Source: a virus
Taxonomy: Duplodnaviria; Heunggongvirae; Uroviricota; Caudoviricetes
Virus record (IMG/VR): IMGVR_UViG_2671180417_000012
Location: 1 to 6,996 of that record
Direction: 5' to 3' (one strand)
DNA length: 6,996 nucleotides
Position numbers and translations under genes: made by a program. Numbering within the stretch: position 1 is the first letter of the stretch; every line of letters begins with the position of its first letter. A model generated the notes under the pieces. It was not told the DNA's origin. It searched no databases and saw nothing but the letters and a program-made list of their open reading frames with translations. This document shows, piece after piece, positions 1 through 6,996 of this stretch.

Positions 1-66
1 GTAGCGGAGCAGGAAGGACATCTGATGGAAATGGAAGCCACGCAAGCACCTTAAAATCACCATCAT
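1..66 (-). CDS. possible 5' part of a further minus-strand ORF running off the left window edge (partial)
   Basis: ATG at 66-64 lies 3 nt after the stop of the 70..264 ORF and in the same frame; 22 open codons to the window edge. No recognisable SD, and too short to judge. Confidence 0.2.
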   Translation of the reverse strand, partial: MMVILRCLRGFHFHQMSFLLRY

Positions 67-69
67 ACA

Positions 70-264
70 CTAAATCAGTAAGTTGGCAGCATTACCGCCT
101 ACGTCAACCCCTAATGGGTAATGAGCTATAATCTTTGCCACCGGCTCTGCTTCCAGCGATGCCAGCGCAATCCGTGCCAGTTCCATTTGTTCACCACGGG
201 TAAGCCCGTTTTCAAGCGGATTTTTAATGAACAATTCAATACGTTCTTTGGTAATAGTGGTCAT
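70..264 (-). CDS. hypothetical small protein (64 aa)
   Basis: ORF with ATG at 264-262 preceded by AAGGAG (reverse complement of 267-272), though the spacing is very short. Same strand as, and co-linear with, the replication operon. No motif recognised. Confidence 0.5.
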   Translation of the reverse strand: MTTITKERIELFIKNPLENGLTRGEQMELARIALASLEAEPVAKIIAHYPLGVDVGGNAANLLI

Positions 265-333
265 GTGTTACTCCTTAACCCGCAGTGCTTTCAACTGATG
301 AGGGGAACAAAATCTTTTCATCAAACCCTGCAT

Positions 334-537
334 TCATATCATGAACAGCAACACACCAATCCATCGACGAACGATTATCAAGAGCCTCCATGATTTCATC
401 CATGCGGCGTAGGTCATACAGGTAAATGCTTTTATCGCCAATGGTGTAAAAGCCAATTTTTTCGGTGATGGACAGCGATCAAGAACTTCCTGTAATTCGT
501 TCAACCATGCCCGTTCTTTTTTTGTCAAAGTTGCCAT
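334..537 (-). CDS. hypothetical small protein (67 aa)
   Basis: ATG at 537-535, 1 nt after the stop of the upstream 72-aa gene (coupled arrangement). The track ORF 334..627 is longer, but the ATG at 537 avoids overlap with the neighbouring gene. No motif recognised. Confidence 0.45.
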   Translation of the reverse strand: MATLTKKERAWLNELQEVLDRCPSPKKLAFTPLAIKAFTCMTYAAWMKSWRLLIIVRRWIGVLLFMI

Positions 538-538
538 A

Positions 539-757
539 TCAGTTTTCCTTATACGGATTAATTTTATTGTGCAGTGTGTTGAATGACGCCCATACCACGT
601 CGTTATACAATTCAGTAACTGGCTCAATTATTTTCCCGATTGCCCAGACAAAAATTAGAGGGGATATCGGTATCATCAATACGATAAACAGAATGAGAAA
701 CAAAAATTCTGTCGCCCTACTTTTTTGCGGATATTCTTTTCTGAATAATGTAGTCAT
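539..757 (-). CDS. small single-pass membrane protein (72 aa)
   Basis: ATG at 757-755. Charged N-terminus followed by one hydrophobic stretch (FLFLILFIVLMIPISPLIFVWAIG) and a polar C-terminal tail. Confidence 0.55.
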   Translation of the reverse strand: MTTLFRKEYPQKSRATEFLFLILFIVLMIPISPLIFVWAIGKIIEPVTELYNDVVWASFNTLHNKINPYKEN

Positions 758-763
758 TTCTTA

Positions 764-779
764 CCGCCCTTTCGGGCGG
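764..779 (-). other. intercistronic GC hairpin (CCGCCC-TTTC-GGGCGG)
   Basis: Perfect 6-bp GC stem with a 4-nt loop between the stop of the 70-aa gene (790) and the start of the 72-aa gene (757). No U-run follows on the minus strand, so it is more likely an RNA stability or processing element than an intrinsic terminator. Confidence 0.4.
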
Positions 780-789
780 CCTCCCGACA

Positions 790-1002
790 TTAATCGTTGT
801 GGTAACTCATGGCTTCATTTGCAGCATCAACCGGATCAACCTCCCACCAGCAATAATTTGGTGCGTTTCCTTCAGGTGTCCACGGTTCTAATTCATTTTT
901 TGCCACATTCTCGTCGCCAGTAATTTTAAAAATCTGCTCAGAGAATTTTTTCACCCACTCGTTATATTTTTCAGTGTTAATAATTTTCTGTGTATTTGAC
1001 AT
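790..1002 (-). CDS. hypothetical small protein (70 aa)
   Basis: ATG at 1002-1000 preceded by GGAGG with 7-nt spacing (reverse complement of 1003-1020). Acidic, Trp-rich C-terminal half. No motif recognised. Confidence 0.6.
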   Translation of the reverse strand: MSNTQKIINTEKYNEWVKKFSEQIFKITGDENVAKNELEPWTPEGNAPNYCWWEVDPVDAANEAMSYHND

Positions 1003-1107
1003 AGATATACCTCCAGTTAAGGATTAAATTTTATTTACAGTGCTGAACTTAATTATTCAGATTTGGATTATGCTTTCTCTTCACGAAGTTCCGATTGTTA
1101 ATTTGGC

Positions 1108-1530
1108 TCACAACAGCACCTTCTGAAAATTACCCTGATAGAAAGCCAGTACACGCTGCATAGCTTCGCTCTTCCGGCACTCGCTACAGATTATGTTTTG
1201 ACGCCTGTCGTAGCGGCGTATTTCTCCGTCTGGTAATGGCCAGATAAGGTCAGGATCAACCACAGATGGTTTCTTCAGATTTGCCCTTGAGAGTTTTTTG
1301 CGGGCGTTTTGCCAGTCCTTACGCGCCTGTTCAGACGGGAATAACCCGTAACCAGAGTTGTATACATCGCCACTGGCAACCAGCTCTCTGGTGAGAACAC
1401 TCATCAGATATCTTGTCGCACCTGTCTTGGCTTCCAGTTGCCGCAACGTCTCGCGACCGCTCAGACGTACAAGTTCAACAACCTGCCCTTTAATTTTTTC
1501 CCGCTCTTCTTGTGTAAATACTTTTGCCAT
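1108..1530 (-). CDS. hypothetical protein with winged-helix-like N-terminal region (140 aa)
   Basis: ATG at 1530-1528 preceded by GGAGG with 5-nt spacing. The track's longer version begins at a TTG at 1545 that would abut the upstream stop; the ATG with SD is preferred. The segment ETLRQLEAKTGATRYLMSVLTRELVASGDV resembles an HTH/winged-helix motif. Confidence 0.65.
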   Translation of the reverse strand: MAKVFTQEEREKIKGQVVELVRLSGRETLRQLEAKTGATRYLMSVLTRELVASGDVYNSGYGLFPSEQARKDWQNARKKLSRANLKKPSVVDPDLIWPLPDGEIRRYDRRQNIICSECRKSEAMQRVLAFYQGNFQKVLL

Positions 1531-1545
1531 AAGCGCCTCCGGCAA

Positions 1546-2316
1546 TCACTTTTCCGATACAACACGGCGGGAAGAATCAGTAATCTGTCGAACAATATCC
1601 CGGTGCTTGTTCAGCTCCCGCAGCGCGGCGCAGACTCGCTCCCACTTCTGAACATCACTTTTCGCCCTGCGCAGCGCCAGGTTTGCCCTGCGAAGGGACG
1701 GAAAAATCAGCTCATCTGCTTGCGTTTCGGTAAACGATGGCAACGGCTGCACAATGTCCGCCACAGTTTCTGTTTTAATTTCTTCCTGTGTTGCGGCTTC
1801 CCGGACTGGTAACGCAGCACCTGCTGGCTGAGGAAAGGCCTTACCATCACTTTCCGTTACCAGCGCGGCTTTCGGCTCTGCTGGTAAATTATCGCCCGGC
1901 ATGCAGTAACGAAATTTACCGTTCTGATTAACGCGTGCCAGCCGCCCCGTTGCGGTTACCACCGCCAGCGTGGAAGCAACCTTGCGAGTACTGACACCGA
2001 ACTTACCCGCCAGTTCCTCACACGTTTTAGCCCCATCCTGACCGATAAACTCAATCATCATGTCTGCGGTAACTTTTTGTTCGACCTCCCCGGTCAGCAT
2101 ATCCTGTGCTTCAGATTTTACTGGCCGCTCTTCGGTTACCCGGGATTCACCTTCGCCAGCCAGAAACCAGGTGTGACCAGTTTTATCAACGACGCCTTTT
2201 CTTTTGAGTTCCCACAGCTCGTTGACAGCCTCTTCACGACTGATTCCAAGGCGAGCTGCCACCACATGTGAAGAGGCTTTTTTCAGTGCTTTCAGTGCGT
2301 CAGATACGGTTTCCAT
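1546..2316 (-). CDS. phage protein with two winged-helix-like segments (256 aa)
   Basis: ATG at 2316-2314 preceded by GGAGG with 8-nt spacing. Two HTH-like segments (AARLGISREEAVNELWELKRKGVV and CEELAGKFGVSTRKVASTLAVVTATGRLARV). Sits immediately downstream of the helicase-loader gene. Confidence 0.75.
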   Translation of the reverse strand: METVSDALKALKKASSHVVAARLGISREEAVNELWELKRKGVVDKTGHTWFLAGEGESRVTEERPVKSEAQDMLTGEVEQKVTADMMIEFIGQDGAKTCEELAGKFGVSTRKVASTLAVVTATGRLARVNQNGKFRYCMPGDNLPAEPKAALVTESDGKAFPQPAGAALPVREAATQEEIKTETVADIVQPLPSFTETQADELIFPSLRRANLALRRAKSDVQKWERVCAALRELNKHRDIVRQITDSSRRVVSEK

Positions 2317-2337
2317 TAAAATTTCCTCCGGACAAAA

Positions 2338-3084
2338 TTACTTCACAACCCTCATATTGCTGACATTTGGACGCCAGCTATCCCAGTTAAACGTCACCCA
2401 TCGACCACCGTTCATGGTCATGCGGTCCATAATCCTCTCACCAAGAAGCGTACTCATTGCGGCATGATTCAGGTTTGTTAACATCCCGACACTGCACAGT
2501 GATGCTGTCCGGCGATCAATTATCTGGTGCAATACCACCTGCTCGTTTTTCGTCTCCCGCTGAACGCCTATTTCATCCAGGACCAGCAAATCAACCCCGC
2601 AAAGCTCCTGTAAAAATTTTTCCCCGGATTTGCCGTTGTCGTAGCTGTCATGCAACACGCTCATGACGTCAGACACGGTGACGATAATCACGCTGCGCCC
2701 CTTCACCATCAGCCGGTTGCCCATCGCCGCTGCAAGGTGATTTTTCCCGGTGCCGGTTTTACCGCTGAACACAAAATTCGTGCACCCGGTCATCAGTTCG
2801 TCAGCTATGGATTTGGCCTGGCTCAGCGCGTATTTTTGCCCGTCGTTCTGCACCTGATAATTTGCAAACGAGCATTTGCTGTGCAGAGGCTGGATGCCCG
2901 AACGATTCAGGATTTTTTCCACCCGCAACTGGCGATTCTGGCGGTTAATCTCCTCGCTGCGTTTTCGTCCTTCAGCAAGTTGCCATTCCCGCCACTCCTC
3001 CACCGTCCGGTACGGTGGAACCGACCCCTGTGGTGCAAGTCTGCGAATACGTTCAAGAACCCCAACTGCCGCAATGTTTTTCAT
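2338..3084 (-). CDS. DnaC-like replicative helicase loader (AAA+ ATPase; phage P-position gene)
   Basis: Walker A FSGKTGTGKNHLAAA and Walker B DLLVLDEIGVQ, plus GMLTNLN, LLGERIMDRM and WVTFNWDSWR, match the motifs of E. coli DnaC as I remember them. Size and position correspond to ydaV of the K-12 Rac prophage. Confidence 0.92.
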   Translation of the reverse strand: MKNIAAVGVLERIRRLAPQGSVPPYRTVEEWREWQLAEGRKRSEEINRQNRQLRVEKILNRSGIQPLHSKCSFANYQVQNDGQKYALSQAKSIADELMTGCTNFVFSGKTGTGKNHLAAAMGNRLMVKGRSVIIVTVSDVMSVLHDSYDNGKSGEKFLQELCGVDLLVLDEIGVQRETKNEQVVLHQIIDRRTASLCSVGMLTNLNHAAMSTLLGERIMDRMTMNGGRWVTFNWDSWRPNVSNMRVVK

Positions 3085-3090
3085 GACACG

Positions 3091-4032
3091 TCACCCCCTG
3101 AATCCCGGCGGTATTTCAGTGTCCGGTTCAGAAATGTGATTCACGCAACGCTGCGCGGGCGAACGCCCCAGGCGGATAACCAGTTCATCCCATTTTTCCC
3201 GGAGTTTTGCCGGACTCATGATGTTTTTTACCCAGAACGAATCCCGCTGGAGACGCCCAAACATTTCACAAATTTGTCTGTGAGTTCTGCCATCCAGCAT
3301 CCGCATTGTCCGCACGTCATTGGCCCATGCAGTCCAGTTGGGTTCTTTCGGTCTCGTGATCTCGCCATCATCGCTGGCCGCCTGCTCGTAAAGACTCACG
3401 ATTCGTCCCCAGACCCACTGTGCGCACACCAAATCTTCCTGACTTCCCCACTGGCGTTTTTTTGCACTGAACACAACCGCGTCAGGGTGTCGGGTTAAAA
3501 AATTCTGTTCAGCCGTCTGCGGGTCCGGTTGCGAAGCGTCCGGACAAGAAGATCTTTTATCTGACGGATCGGGGTCAATCATCGCCCCCCTAATCGGCAG
3601 TTTGTTATCAACAGTTGATCCATCAAAATTTGACGGGTCAACCGTTGAGGGGGCAATATTTGACGGGTCAACTGTTAACGGGTCATTTTTTGCCGGGCTA
3701 ATTTTTCTTTTCGGTTTATATGACTCACGCGCCGCCGCAGCAGCTGCTTCGAGTTTTTCCACATTAAGCCGATAGATATTGCTTACATTACGCCCACCGA
3801 CCTTACGCTCTTCCTTCGTCAGCCAGCCCTCTTTCGCCAGTTCTGCAATAGCCGATTTCACTGTGGATTCACTTCTTGCACCGATCTGACGCCGGATAGT
3901 TTCAATGGCAGGCCATGACACGCCCTCGTCATTGCTGTAGTCTGCAAGACGGGCCATAACCGCCACCCTGGATAAGATCATGCCGGTGAAGGCGCACCCT
4001 TCCCAGACAAGACCATGAAGCTTGCTGCTCAT
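3091..4032 (-). CDS. replication initiator, lambda-O-like (N-terminal HTH; origin iterons inside the gene)
   Basis: ATG at 4032-4030 after a G-run (an alternative GTG at 4047 gives the track's 318 aa). N-terminal HTH-like segment (SWPAIETIRRQIGARSESTVKSAIAELAKEGWL). An internal peptide repeat (TVDPSNIAPSTVDPSNFDGSTVD) corresponds to DNA iterons. Sits directly upstream of the DnaC-like gene. Confidence 0.85.
   Translation of the reverse strand: MSSKLHGLVWEGCAFTGMILSRVAVMARLADYSNDEGVSWPAIETIRRQIGARSESTVKSAIAELAKEGWLTKEERKVGGRNVSNIYRLNVEKLEAAAAAARESYKPKRKISPAKNDPLTVDPSNIAPSTVDPSNFDGSTVDNKLPIRGAMIDPDPSDKRSSCPDASQPDPQTAEQNFLTRHPDAVVFSAKKRQWGSQEDLVCAQWVWGRIVSLYEQAASDDGEITRPKEPNWTAWANDVRTMRMLDGRTHRQICEMFGRLQRDSFWVKNIMSPAKLREKWDELVIRLGRSPAQRCVNHISEPDTEIPPGFRG
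3606..3725. repeat. putative replication origin: three iterons followed by an AT-rich tract
   Basis: Palindromic cores TCAACaGTTGA (about 3608-3618), TCAACcGTTGA (about 3638-3648) and TCAACtGTTaA (about 3668-3678). The last two sit in a longer repeat, ATTTGACGGGTCAAC. The run ttttttgccgggctaatttttcttttcggtttatat follows at 3686-3725. This is the lambda ori layout inside O. Confidence 0.6.
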
Positions 4033-4054
4033 AAAACCCCCGAACACCGTGCTT

Positions 4055-4480
4055 TTAGTGCATCACCACAGCATTCCCTGCCGGGCCGCCGCGATTCATC
4101 TGGTCATACAAAACAACCGCTGACGCAACAAAATCATCGACATCCTTCACCAGCCGATCCCTCCGTTCGACGATCTCACGGTAATATTCAGAACTGTGGC
4201 TGCGCATACGGGCCACCAGCAAAGGCGGCATCGCCTTTTCGATCGCCGGTAACAGAGCCTGCATTTTTTCAACAGCATCAGGGGTGTCTTTCTCTACCCA
4301 GCGGAAAATTTTCTGGGTATTGCGAGCCAGGGCTTCCGGATGGCTGTCGTCATACAGTTCCGGGAACGTCATTCCCAGCTCGAAATACGCTTTGGTAATT
4401 TTCGCAGCCGGTACTTTTTCGCCGTCCGGATGCGCCCAGACATTCATCGCCATGCGGATGTGTTCATGCTTGATTTTCAT
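4055..4480 (-). CDS. ydaT: YdaT-like protein (Rac-prophage family; CII-position gene)
   Basis: ATG at 4480-4478 overlaps the stop of the upstream Cro-like gene (ATGA overlap), with GGAG 7 nt upstream. The sequence (MKIKHEHIRMAMNVWAHPDGE...) matches my recollection of E. coli Rac YdaT; the 141-aa length fits. Confidence 0.85.
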   Translation of the reverse strand: MKIKHEHIRMAMNVWAHPDGEKVPAAKITKAYFELGMTFPELYDDSHPEALARNTQKIFRWVEKDTPDAVEKMQALLPAIEKAMPPLLVARMRSHSSEYYREIVERRDRLVKDVDDFVASAVVLYDQMNRGGPAGNAVVMH

Positions 4481-4779
4481 GAATCAACTCCATCAGATAA
4501 GCATGCACTACAATCACCTTCAGCATGAACTACATGTGTTTGCCCCAAACGAATGCCGCTCGCATACTCAGGCCAAATAAGCTCCCAATCATGGGGTCGT
4601 AGCTCCGCCCTACTTACTTGGCCTTCCGTCGCAGATTCGATCATAAGGGCGCGGGTTGGAGATATAGCTGTTCGTCCAGACGCCATTTGCGATAAGTAAG
4701 ATGGCGATACACCAAGTCTGGCCGCGAATTTCTTAGCATCACCAACCCTTAATGATTTAATAAACTCTTTTAATGTCAT
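4477..4779 (-). CDS. ydaS: Cro-like HTH protein, YdaS family
   Basis: ATG at 4779-4777 with SD GAGGAAGG (reverse complement of 4782-4789). HTH segment AKKFAARLGVSPSYLSQMASGRTAISP. First gene of the minus operon, divergent from the regulator gene. Confidence 0.85.
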   Translation of the reverse strand: MTLKEFIKSLRVGDAKKFAARLGVSPSYLSQMASGRTAISPTRALMIESATEGQVSRAELRPHDWELIWPEYASGIRLGQTHVVHAEGDCSACLSDGVDS

Positions 4780-4876
4780 ACCTTCCTCGGTTTAGTGTTT
4801 TTTTGCGAGTTTAGTGTTTAATAAACCATTAAGTCAAGTATTTGCTTGTTTAGTGATTACTAAAGATAATTACCAC
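4780..4876. promoter_or_regulatory. divergent promoter/operator region (OR-like)
   Basis: Three direct repeats GTTTAGTG(T/A)TT at 4790-4800, 4809-4819 and 4848-4858. Plus-strand promoter: -35 TTGCTT (4842-4847), 17-nt spacer, -10 GATAAT (4865-4870), placing the start about at the ATG at 4877. Minus-strand promoter: -35 TTGACT (reverse complement of 4832-4837), 18-nt spacer, -10 TAAACT (reverse complement of 4808-4813). Confidence 0.6.
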
Positions 4877-5248
4877 ATGCAAAAAAAAGAAATTCGCCGT
4901 TTACGTCTCAAGGAGTGGTTTAAAGATAAAACTCTGCCACCCAAAGAGAAGAGCTACCTATCTCAACTAATGAGTGGGAGAGCCTCGTTTGGAGAAAAGG
5001 CTGCCAGAAGAATAGAGCAAACATACGGGATGCCGGAAGGGTATCTGGATGCGGAATACGCAGAACAACCGGGGGTTTCTCCACCACATGCAGGGTTAAC
5101 GTCTAATCAACTGGAATTATTGCAGATTTTTTCAGCCTTCCCTGAGGATGAGCAACGCCAGATAATCAGCGAGTTAAAGCAGAAAAAAGAATCAATGGAA
5201 GATCTCATAGCGAGATGGATTGCGGCGCAAAAATGCCGCCGCGCCTGA
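4877..5248 (+). CDS. paaR2: HTH transcriptional regulator (PaaR2-like; occupies the repressor position)
   Basis: ATG at 4877 with no SD, 7 nt after a GATAAT -10 (leaderless, like lambda cI from PRM). HTH segment SYLSQLMSGRASFGEKAARRIEQTYGM. The track's upstream GTG at 4814 would overlap the operators and is not preferred. The name is from memory of the O157:H7 paaR2-paaA2-parE2 locus. Confidence 0.8.
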   Translation: MQKKEIRRLRLKEWFKDKTLPPKEKSYLSQLMSGRASFGEKAARRIEQTYGMPEGYLDAEYAEQPGVSPPHAGLTSNQLELLQIFSAFPEDEQRQIISELKQKKESMEDLIARWIAAQKCRRA

Positions 5249-5268
5249 GTTATAAAACCGGAGGAAAC

Positions 5269-5460
5269 ATGAATAGAGCCCTTTCACCAATGGTTTCTGA
5301 ATTTGAAACCATTGAACAAGAAAACAGTTACAACGAATGGCTGCGTGCGAAAGTAGCAACGAGCCTTGCAGATCCGCGCCCAGCAATTCCCCATGACGAA
5401 GTTGAGCGCAGAATGGCAGAACGCTTTGCTAAGATGCGCAAGGAACGGAGCAAGCAGTAA
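5269..5460 (+). CDS. paaA2: small antitoxin of a ParE-type toxin-antitoxin module (PaaA2-like, 63 aa)
   Basis: ATG at 5269 preceded by GGAGGA (5260-5265). 63-aa charged, helix-prone protein, immediately upstream of the ParE-like gene with a 1-nt gap (TAA 5458-5460, ATG 5462). The track's upstream start at 5215 overlaps the regulator gene and is not preferred. Confidence 0.8.
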   Translation: MNRALSPMVSEFETIEQENSYNEWLRAKVATSLADPRPAIPHDEVERRMAERFAKMRKERSKQ

Positions 5461-5461
5461 A

Positions 5462-5740
5462 ATGTTACCCGTGTTATGGCTTGAAAGCGCAGATACCGAC
5501 CTAGATGATATAACTAGTTATATTGCTCGTTTCGACATAGATGCGGCTGAACGCTTATGGCAGCGATTAAGGGGTTGTGTGCTGCCGTTATCCGAACATC
5601 CGTATTTATACCCACCAAGCGACAGAGTACCTGGCTTGCGTGAGATTGTAGCCCACCCTAACTATATAATTCTATACCGCGTAACAACATCAAGCGTTGA
5701 AGTAGTAAACGTGATCCACGCAAGACGCCAGTTTCCCTAA
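5462..5740 (+). CDS. parE2: ParE/RelE-superfamily toxin (ParE2-like, 92 aa)
   Basis: ATG at 5462 (MLPVLWLESADTD...). Size, composition and conserved C-terminal region (HPNYIILYRV...VEVVNVIHARRQFP) fit the ParE family. Operon partner of the small antitoxin. The track's longer start at 5366 would overlap the antitoxin by 95 nt. Confidence 0.85.
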   Translation: MLPVLWLESADTDLDDITSYIARFDIDAAERLWQRLRGCVLPLSEHPYLYPPSDRVPGLREIVAHPNYIILYRVTTSSVEVVNVIHARRQFP

Positions 5741-5755
5741 CTTTCACTACCAATA

Positions 5756-5808
5756 GAAACATAACAACCGCAACGACTTTATCAAAAGCGTTGTGTTTGT
5801 TATGTTCC
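5756..5808 (+). terminator. long imperfect inverted repeat, possible terminator after the toxin gene
   Basis: About 18 bp pair between 5757-5775 and 5789-5806 (one mismatch, one G-U), with a 13-nt loop. A T-rich segment GGTTTAGTTTTT follows a few nt later. Begins 16 nt after the parE2-like stop. Confidence 0.4.
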
Positions 5809-5855
5809 GCGGTTTAGTTTTTACTTGACTTAAGTTTAATATTCATTAAACCAAA
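5809..5855 (+). promoter_or_regulatory. putative PL-like promoter with operator copy (OL-like)
   Basis: CGGTTTAGT (5810-5818) repeats the operator motif of the 4780-4876 region. TACTTGACTTAA (5822-5833) is identical to the context of the -35 TTGACT of the minus-strand promoter at 4832-4837 and contains the palindrome ACTTAAGT. No confident -10 (best TAAACC at 16-nt spacing). Confidence 0.4.
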
Positions 5856-6170
5856 AATACCAACCCACCCCGCCCCACAGAACGCAGGGAAATACTTCGA
5901 GTTACCCGGCAGTGGTCAGGGGTTAAGTAGCCAGCCCGAGGCGTATGAACATGACGGCAGGGTTCAACTTTAATAACTATGCAGCAGGTTTTTGTTCCGC
6001 TACCCCGGCGTTAAGGGGAAACAGAGGGTTTCTCAGTGGGCGAAGTCAAACATCAGAATGGAAGGCATCCCGGGATCGGCAAAGAAGCAGCAATGGCGCT
6101 TTATATTGACATCAGCGCCATTGCAGGACAGGTAAGAGTTATCAGAGCGGTAACTAAGCGGTATGCGCCT

Positions 6171-6371
6171 TTACTTCAGAAAGTCTCTGGTGAGTGCACC
6201 GAAGATATTGTCAACGATTTCGTCATCGAACTGCGAGGACTCATCTTCAGTTACAAGGTGACCACAATTTTTGCAGATGGCTCCCGCGAAACTGTCAGAG
6301 CCCTGCGGCTTAAAGGATGTGTCAAAGACTTCGCCACCACATTCTGGGCAAGAAAACTTGATTGTATTCAT
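6171..6371 (-). CDS. zinc-ribbon mini-protein (66 aa, CPxCG...CxxCG)
   Basis: ATG at 6371-6369 with SD GAGAGG/GAGGAA 8 nt upstream. Two CxxCG knuckles (CPECGG, CKNCGH) 17 residues apart, and an acidic C-terminal tail. Codon usage looks more E. coli-like than that of the overlapping plus-strand ORF 6036..6392, which uses AGA three times. Confidence 0.6.
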   Translation of the reverse strand: MNTIKFSCPECGGEVFDTSFKPQGSDSFAGAICKNCGHLVTEDESSQFDDEIVDNIFGALTRDFLK

Positions 6372-6463
6372 AACCAATTTCCTCTCGAGTAACAGACCCC
6401 TCAGAGGATACCACCTCGCCTGACGTGGTTAAAAGCAGGCAACGCTAACCACAAGGAGCCGAC

Positions 6464-6682
6464 ATGCAGAAACGAGAACCCGTCATCATCGCGCCAGACT
6501 ATACCGATGATGAACTTTATGAGTGGATGCACCAGAAAATTAATGCAGCGCAGGATCTGAAATGGGCCAATGAAGCCAGGGCTAAGCAGGCTGAAAATCT
6601 GTCCGCTCTGGAGCAGGATATCACCAATCTGGAAAAAGCAGCGGCATTAAGCATTGCCAGAATGATTACATACCCGCGTTAG
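6464..6682 (+). CDS. hypothetical small protein (72 aa)
   Basis: ATG at 6464 preceded by AAGGAG (6453-6458) with 5-nt spacing. Charged, helix-prone sequence. On the same strand as the presumed PL-like transcription. Confidence 0.6.
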   Translation: MQKREPVIIAPDYTDDELYEWMHQKINAAQDLKWANEARAKQAENLSALEQDITNLEKAAALSIARMITYPR

Positions 6683-6699
6683 TAGCTAATCAACAAAGC

Positions 6700-6996
6700 T
6701 AAGGTTAGTAATTAAGGAGTTCTCCACGGGTGAGGTGGAGTGCGTGCGCCGGACACGGGTGAGCATCCGGCACTGACAGTTTACTGAAAGGATATTTCCC
6801 TGAAAAGTCAGACCATAACGCGAAAGCGCACGGCGAGGTAGCTGGTTCATAGATAGCCTGTCGTTAAATTTTCGTCGACCGTGCGCTTCCGGTTGTGGCA
6901 ACCCGCGAAATGGCGCGGCGGTAAGTATGGCGGGGTTATTCCTTCCCCCGTTGAGGACACCGGGTTGTCAGGTTGACCATACGCTTAAGTGACAAC
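6700..6996 (+). other. GC-rich, hairpin-dense non-coding region (candidate structured RNA), continuing past the window end
   Basis: No plausible ORF on either strand. Adjacent hairpins CTCCAC-GGGTGAG-GTGGAG (6722-6740) and GCCGGA-CACGGGTGAGCA-TCCGGC (6748-6771) both display the decamer CACGGGTGAG. Further stems: GCGCACGG (6826-6833) with CCGTGCGC (6880-6887), CCGCG-AAATGG-CGCGG (6903-6918), GTATGG (6925-6930) with CCATAC (6977-6982). Confidence 0.3.

Follow-up and report, generated by a model that had tools for sequence, protein, structure and literature searches.

A paaR2-paaA2-parE2 toxin-antitoxin operon at the position of cI-rexAB in a lambda-like immunity region

What does a ParE-type toxin-antitoxin (TA) pair do when it is placed directly behind the repressor gene of a prophage? 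This question is raised by positions 4780-5740 of a stretch of Caudoviricetes DNA (IMG/VR record IMGVR_UViG_2671180417_000012, positions 1 to 6,996; the whole 6,996 nucleotides are hereafter called the window). Here, both the six-frame list of open reading frames (ORFs) and the raw sequence hold three plus-strand ORFs, for a regulator, an antitoxin and a toxin, at the positions given in the original prediction, which had been made from the letters alone. We compared the window with Pfam profiles, PDB chains, 5426 complete Escherichia coli genomes, PHROG, PADLOC and Rfam. The locus is almost certainly the published paaR2-paaA2-parE2 operon, lying in the immunity region of a lambdoid (pro)phage of the CP-933P/Sp12 type.

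The identity of the three genes was settled by profile and structure comparisons. A Pfam search of their products, which the original prediction had proposed as a check, placed the toxin and the antitoxin in families and the regulator in none. First, the product of parE2 (5462-5740, plus strand, 92 aa) is the ParE-family toxin anticipated at this place: it matches ParE_toxin (PF05016) with 60.9 bits against a cut-off of 23, its residues 4-91 covering profile positions 1-89 of 89, and it is identical over 92 of 92 residues to the crystallised ParE2 of E. coli O157 (PDB 5CW7, chain B; also 5CZE and 5CZF), which has the RelE/ParE fold. Its matches to other ParE structures, namely 3KXE, 6X0A, 5CEG and 8C24, are weak but significant. 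Second, the product of paaA2 (5269-5460, plus strand, 63 aa) matches the Pfam family PaaA2 (PF21217) with 70.7 bits against a cut-off of 27, no further domain being found in its 63 residues, and over residues 2-63 it does not differ from the PaaA2 chain in PDB 3ZBE (see also 5CW7); it is thus an antitoxin without a DNA-binding domain. Third, the product of paaR2 (4877-5248, plus strand, 123 aa) begins at the ATG at 4877 with MQKKEIRR, and its residues 1-66 are the N-terminal domain of PaaR2 in PDB 7NKV (66 of 66 residues), an entry deposited as 'Phage repressor protein CI'; in PHROG it falls in phrog_5736, 'transcriptional regulator'.

The spacing of these genes is tight. Between paaR2 and paaA2 there are 20 nt, containing the GGAGGA Shine-Dalgarno sequence that precedes the antitoxin ATG at 5269, and the toxin ATG at 5462 lies a single base past the antitoxin stop (TAAAATG). 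A promoter and terminator scan found neither signal above chance between the three genes. Gene order, common strand and spacing are those of a three-component paaR-paaA-parE system and are compatible with one transcript; for the identical locus, operon status has been shown experimentally (PMC8630535). At the DNA level, positions 4000-5900 are 99.4-99.5% identical to O55:H7 and O157:H7 chromosomes. A base-by-base comparison with O157:H7 LSU61 counted 10 substitutions within this interval and none in ydaS, the 97-bp region upstream of paaR2, paaA2 or parE2; paaR2 itself differs by one, at 5076. Given these identities to solved structures and to O157:H7 DNA, the locus is therefore paaR2-paaA2-parE2 itself and not just a look-alike. 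The original prediction had noted a likeness to that locus and judged the genes to be probably not new; the likeness turns out to be exact, with identical toxin, antitoxin and regulator N-domain.

Is the regulator a relative of the lambda repressor? In its 123 residues we found no Pfam family at E ≤ 0.01, and no match to an XRE-type helix-turn-helix (HTH) or Peptidase_S24 profile. With neither an HTH_3 nor an S24 profile match, we rejected homology to lambda CI: PaaR2 is a functional analogue of CI, and neither a homologue nor a member of the CI/LexA-like family.

The control region between paaR2 and the divergent gene ydaS provides the second line of evidence. The two start codons lie 97 bp apart (4780-4876), and this region, OR, contains three GTTTAGTG repeats. 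The motif GTTTAGTR occurs at 4790, 4809 and 4848 and nowhere else in the window; the expectation from shuffled sequence is 0.25 copies, and none of 200 shuffles reached three. Based on these repeats and the gene arrangement, the observation of an operator-laden divergent intergenic region is therefore real and well above chance. Two 18-mer palindromes, at 4809-4826 (GTTTAGTGT/TTAATAAAC) and 4848-4865 (GTTTAGTGA/TTACTAAAG), together with a half-conserved site at 4790-4800, overlap the promoters PRM and PR. These operators are delimited by repeat families D1-D3, by motif enrichment and by published PaaR2 and YdaS footprints, and the whole region is base-for-base identical to that of the O157:H7 genome. 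Downstream of the toxin gene, the repeat finder returned related copies from the same repeat families (5812-5822 and 5833-5853).

Three promoters are associated with these operators. PR (4808-4837, minus strand; TTGACT, 18 nt, TAAACT), supported by a promoter scan, its sequence and published 5' RACE (rapid amplification of cDNA ends) and green fluorescent protein (GFP) fusions, drives ydaS-ydaT-O-dnaC, and is followed by a GAGGAAGG Shine-Dalgarno sequence and then the ydaS ATG on the minus strand. PRM (4842-4870, plus strand; TTGCTT, 17 nt, GATAAT) has a -10 element that ends 6 nt upstream of the paaR2 ATG, and no Shine-Dalgarno sequence precedes 4877, a geometry that fits a leaderless start. 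Past parE2, the OL/PL region (5812-5852, plus strand) combines operator copies at 5812-5829 and 5834-5851 with the promoter PL, TTGACT (5825-5830) and TAAACC (5847-5852) separated by 16 nt. It was recognised from repeats D1/D2, I3, I4 and I6 and from alignments, and agrees with the published repression of PL933P by PaaR2 and YdaS.

The leaderless regulator of the original prediction is borne out by experiment, since on the identical 97-bp sequence the two transcription starts were located by 5' RACE (Jurenas et al. 2021). The paaR2 transcript begins at the ATG, and the MQKKE N-terminus of PaaR2 was confirmed by Edman sequencing and mass spectrometry (PMC8630535). In the same study PaaR2 and YdaS bound the 97-bp region in electrophoretic mobility shift assays (EMSA) and DNase I footprinting. 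In GFP fusions, PaaR2 repressed PR and the PL promoter beyond parE2, while PRM was first activated and then repressed. YdaS acted like Cro, YdaT activated a PRE-like promoter in the manner of CII, and the switch was bistable, one of its states being lost in a paaR2 stop mutant (PMC8630535).

These results bear on whether PaaR2 might be a mere autoregulator of a three-component TA system, in effect part of a split antitoxin, with the Cro-like neighbour incidental. The system was first described as such (Hallez 2010, as summarised in PMC8630535), and some regulator is needed because PaaA2 lacks a DNA-binding domain. Moreover, in two variant loci described below (L003 and L004) a second XRE-type, PaaR-like regulator stands directly upstream of paaA-parE, which suggests that the TA pair can come with its own regulator. 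However, repression of PR and PL by PaaR2 is stronger than that of its own promoter (PMC8630535), and the state lost in the stop mutant argues in the same direction. In addition, operator copies recur ~1 kb away, at a second promoter, where a plain TA autoregulator would not need them, and OR in the window is identical to the sequence tested. An autoregulator-only role, largely refuted by the published PR and PL repression and by the OL copies in the window, is therefore highly improbable. The claim that the regulator is the actual immunity repressor holds, on the identity of its N-domain to that of PaaR2 and on repression of PR and PL published for the identical operator (PMC8630535).

With PaaR2 as the immunity repressor, the switch would operate as follows. 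PaaR2 would be translated from a leaderless PRM mRNA starting at its own ATG, and would bind the GTTTAGT-type repeats of the 97-bp OR and of the second set, OL, past parE2. It would thereby repress the divergent PR (ydaS-ydaT-O-dnaC) and PL, and act on PRM as an activator at low level and a repressor at high level. The Cro-like YdaS would compete for the PaaR2 sites, yielding a bistable switch, and YdaT, bound to an inverted repeat at 4470-4487, would turn on a PRE-like promoter back into paaR2, as CII does. Because paaA2 and parE2 follow paaR2 in one transcript, the TA pair would be made in the repressed ('lysogenic') state, which is the place of RexAB in lambda. PaaA2, without a DNA-binding domain, would wrap around and neutralise ParE2, and would itself be degraded by ClpAP/ClpXP. 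Because of this degradation, loss of the locus would free ParE2, which would induce SOS and kill or arrest the cell; the module would thus keep the immunity region in place by addiction. Parts of this scheme are documented for the published locus. PaaA2 is protease-labile, and the locus is addictive: it causes post-segregational killing and stabilises an unstable mini-F plasmid (PMC8630535). For the identical ParE2, toxicity neutralised by the antitoxin and DNA damage with SOS induction have been reported (Hallez 2010, as summarised in PMC8630535).

How tightly the repressor and the TA pair are bound together can be read from their distribution. The paaR2 gene is present in 593 of the 5426 complete genomes, and in 591 of these 593 the ydaT-to-PL interval (4000-5900) is also there to 80% or more; hence repressor and TA pair practically always occur together. 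In the published work the module is assigned to a cryptic prophage. The whole ydaT-ydaS-paaR2-paaA2-parE2-PL region is found, at 95.7% DNA identity and with an identical ParE2, in Escherichia phage Evi (LR597642, 19990-21850; locus L002), a coliphage isolated from infant stool, in whose 40-kb record the genes for head, tail, terminase and lysis are complete. Cryptic prophages are therefore not the only setting in which the arrangement occurs. In the Evi record, parE2 is intact yet unannotated.

Variant regulators, among them rare two-regulator hybrids, depart from this pattern. In some E. coli prophages (locus L005, 2951-3858) the place of cI, in front of paaA-parE, is taken by an XRE-type regulator of 132 aa; its last ~50 residues are 54% identical to the C-terminus of PaaR2, and the likeness is confined to that part. 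In others, rare four-gene variants (L003, 3167-4477, and L004, 2599-3910), a PaaR2-like gene and this XRE-type gene stand in tandem ahead of paaA-parE. Across the variant immunity regions of L003, L004 and L005, ParE is 90-95% identical. Comparison of these sequences suggests recombination at a shared C-terminal domain or at the toxin-antitoxin joint. The mosaic pattern fits the idea, put forward by the authors of PMC8630535, of a TA pair surviving recombination of the immunity region, and is only suggestive.

The same distribution feeds an account in which the TA pair is a selfish passenger, of no gain to phage or host, that persists because recombinants or deletions that lose it die. Post-segregational killing by the locus (PMC8630535), the joint presence of regulator and TA pair in 591 of 593 genomes, and the conservation of ParE at 90-95% in spite of different repressor N-terminal domains, as would be expected were survival limited to recombinants retaining the pair, all favour it. 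These are, however, the same data that speak for stabilisation of the prophage, and the two accounts differ in who benefits, not in mechanism. We regard the selfish passenger as a possible but doubtful explanation, and infer stabilisation as the selected function.

A different selected function, and one compatible with the regulatory picture given above, would be abortive infection (Abi) or exclusion, as for RexAB. Here PaaA2-ParE2, expressed from PRM in the lysogen, would respond to infection by loss of PaaA2, and ParE2 would kill the cell before progeny are released. The pair does occupy the position of rexAB, its transcription belongs to the repressed state, its antitoxin is protease-labile, and it is carried by Evi, a viable temperate phage in which selection could act on a gain to the lysogen; TA systems are, as is generally appreciated, increasingly found to act against phages (for example, PMC10440598). 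In opposition to this, a PADLOC scan of regulator, antitoxin and toxin gave no homology to defence proteins, none of the three matching any defence model. A literature search for phage-challenge or Abi tests of PaaA2 or ParE2 returned just reviews, unrelated ParE papers and one reference-list entry in a defence paper, and hence no phage challenge of the pair. Activation of the toxin was seen in neither state of the switch, phage infection not being among the conditions used (PMC8630535). We regard an exclusion module as quite unlikely. Slightly broader, and unlikely as well, is the suggestion that in a viable temperate phage of the Evi type the PRM-expressed pair may go beyond addiction, acting either as a RexAB-like Abi or exclusion module or as a guard that kills recombinants in which the immunity region has been swapped. 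If it were such a guard, the rare four-gene variants with tandem regulators would be surviving footprints of immunity swaps. Presence in a plaque-forming phage, together with near-constant linkage over 5426 genomes and rare two-regulator hybrids, could help to test the role of the TA pair.

Returning to PaaR2 as immunity repressor with a stabilising TA pair behind it, no feature of the sequence contradicts this reading; five points nevertheless weigh against it. First, PaaR2 is without the S24 peptidase domain of CI, as indicated by the lack of a Pfam match and by the authors' own discussion (PMC8630535), and induction therefore cannot follow the lambda route; indeed, the peptidase motif is absent and PaaR2 shows no response to mitomycin C (PMC8630535). 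Second, single-cell work detected ParE2 activity in neither state of the switch (PMC8630535). Third, the stabilising role is based on plasmid-loss, not prophage-loss, assays (PMC8630535). Fourth, no complete E. coli genome searched is a 100% match to the window. Fifth, the element differs from the published locus in PaaR2 (V67; G67 in O157), in two substitutions in YdaT and in a PL -10 element that reads TAAACC, not TAAACT. The locus lies in a copy of the CP-933P/Sp12-type prophage that differs slightly, and we infer that the published behaviour of the identical sequence holds in this particular element too.

Two of these differences deserve description. Residue 67 of PaaR2 (substitution at 5076), which lies in the linker joining the HTH domain to the oligomerisation region, is V here and G in O157:H7, and Evi has E66-I67; the V67 allele of paaR2 is 100% identical in DNA to copies in sequence type 131 (ST131) and several Shiga toxin-producing E. 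coli (STEC) genomes. The PL -10 element at 5847-5852, TAAACC, is TAAACT in O157:H7 LSU61, phage Evi and an ST131 prophage, and two more substitutions lie in its surroundings, at 5806 and 5844. Without the conserved final T of the -10 element, PL, and with it leftward early transcription, may be weaker in this element, to judge from the sequence. Between the parE2 stop, which it follows immediately, and PL lies a hairpin with 23-nt arms (5758-5806, plus strand), found as inverted repeat I1 and by RNA folding. Its folding energy is -25.7 kcal/mol (z = -4.97), none of 200 shuffles was equally stable, and no U-tract follows. Its position is like that of t_imm, and the operon may end there; alternatively, the hairpin may be an RNA-stability element; neither PMC8630535 nor PMC9986795 discusses it.

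The divergent genes complete the lambda-like layout. The original prediction had described a Cro-like/YdaT-like/O/P operon; the first three members stand on their profiles, and the fourth, 'P', proved to be a DnaC/IstB-type ATPase. The Cro analogue ydaS (4477-4779, minus strand), a 100-aa HTH protein, matches YdaS_toxin (above the cut-off of the family) and HTH_3 in Pfam, gives a sub-threshold match to P22_Cro, has DNA identical to that of O157:H7 LSU61, and is supported by published EMSA, footprint and repression data. The CII analogue ydaT (4055-4480, minus strand, 141 aa) matches YdaT_toxin, likewise above the cut-off; 138 of 140 residues are identical to CP-933P YdaT (PDB 8BT1), for which activation of PRE is published. 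Across the ydaS stop and the ydaT start lies the YdaT operator OM (4470-4487; TTGATTTTCATGAATCAA), an exact TTGATTN6AATCAA that is the sole match in the window (0.01 expected) and has a published footprint; this is the inverted repeat on which Prolic-Kalinsek et al. (2023) footprinted YdaT (PMC9986795). Next come an O-like replication initiator or replisome organiser gene (3091-4047, minus strand, 318 aa; HTH_36 and weak DnaD_N in Pfam), an o homologue according to PMC8630535, and, in the lambda P position, a DnaC/IstB-type AAA+ helicase-loader gene (2338-3084, minus strand, 248 aa; IstB_IS21 with 68.6 bits, Bac_DnaA ATPase; RefSeq orthologue 'ATP-binding protein'). As the second replication gene encodes a DnaC-type loader and not a lambda P homologue, 'O/P' applies by position only.

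Further observations concern the flanks. To the right, two antiparallel ORFs overlap fully and are both present in protein-family libraries: 6036-6392 (plus strand) is phrog_21318, annotated in phage Evi, and 6171-6377 (minus strand), with a CxxC...CxxC pattern, is the RefSeq-annotated 'ECs_2282 family putative zinc-binding protein'. A codon-position comparison of the two had no power, with just one substitution among relatives. To the left of ~1495 the window no longer follows the O157:H7 CP-933P-type prophage, and small minus-strand ORFs in 1-1500 match PHROG families without known function, 539-757 being phrog_1832; this divergence is the usual mosaicism of lambdoid early regions. Over the whole window the best matches are to prophages of ATCC 25922-type strains; they extend over 223-6996 and leave the initial ~220 bases unmatched. 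Scanning the full window against Rfam, with gathering thresholds, gave no RNA family, including no DicF-like small RNA.

What does this answer amount to? The locus and its lambda-like logic are already known, and the experiments that the original prediction proposed were published between 2010 and 2023; the regulator-operon context that it had singled out as worth testing has been tested on the identical operator sequence. A well-studied locus was correctly re-identified, and the re-identification therefore adds nothing to the field, although the initial account does show that the lambda-like logic of an immunity region can be recovered from raw sequence.

The closest comparison is with the paaR2-paaA2-parE2 locus of CP-933P (E. 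coli O157:H7 EDL933) and Sp12 (Sakai), which has the same genes in the same order and spacing, and identical ParE2 and PaaA2; in the O157:H7 genome the DNA of OR, ydaS, paaA2 and parE2 is that of the window. The flanks are shared as well, namely, ydaS, ydaT, the O-like and DnaC-like genes, ECs_2282 and ydfC, and what separates the two is 10 substitutions over 1.9 kb, comprising PaaR2 G67V, the ydaT changes and three bases in the PL region, one of them in the -10 element.

Compared with canonical parDE systems (RK2 ParDE, Caulobacter ParDE1 and V. cholerae ParDE2), the locus has in common a toxin of ParE/RelE fold, a labile antitoxin and post-segregational killing. In contrast to them, PaaA2 lacks a ribbon-helix-helix (RHH) or other DNA-binding domain, and transcription is controlled by a distinct regulator, which doubles as the prophage repressor, with no autoregulation by conditional cooperativity.

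With the immunity region of lambda, finally, the locus shares divergent PRM and PR promoters with common multipartite operators, a second operator and promoter set (PL) beyond the accessory genes, a leaderless repressor mRNA (published for this locus), accessory genes that follow the repressor in the same transcript, a competitor of the Cro kind, and an activator resembling CII whose site lies at the cro/cII junction. That the layout is cI-rexA-rexB with rexAB replaced by a TA pair, as predicted from the sequence, is evident from the gene order here and had been stated outright, paaA2-parE2 standing in place of rexA-rexB and PaaR2 in place of CI (PMC9986795). The two regions are nevertheless without sequence homology: PaaR2 has neither a Pfam match nor an S24 autocleavage domain, there are four 18-bp operator sites ~19-20 bp apart where lambda has three, and YdaT is a POU-type tetramer, unlike the CII fold (PMC9986795). 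The cargo differs too, a ParE toxin-antitoxin pair here and RexAB in lambda, and the likeness between these is one of position only.

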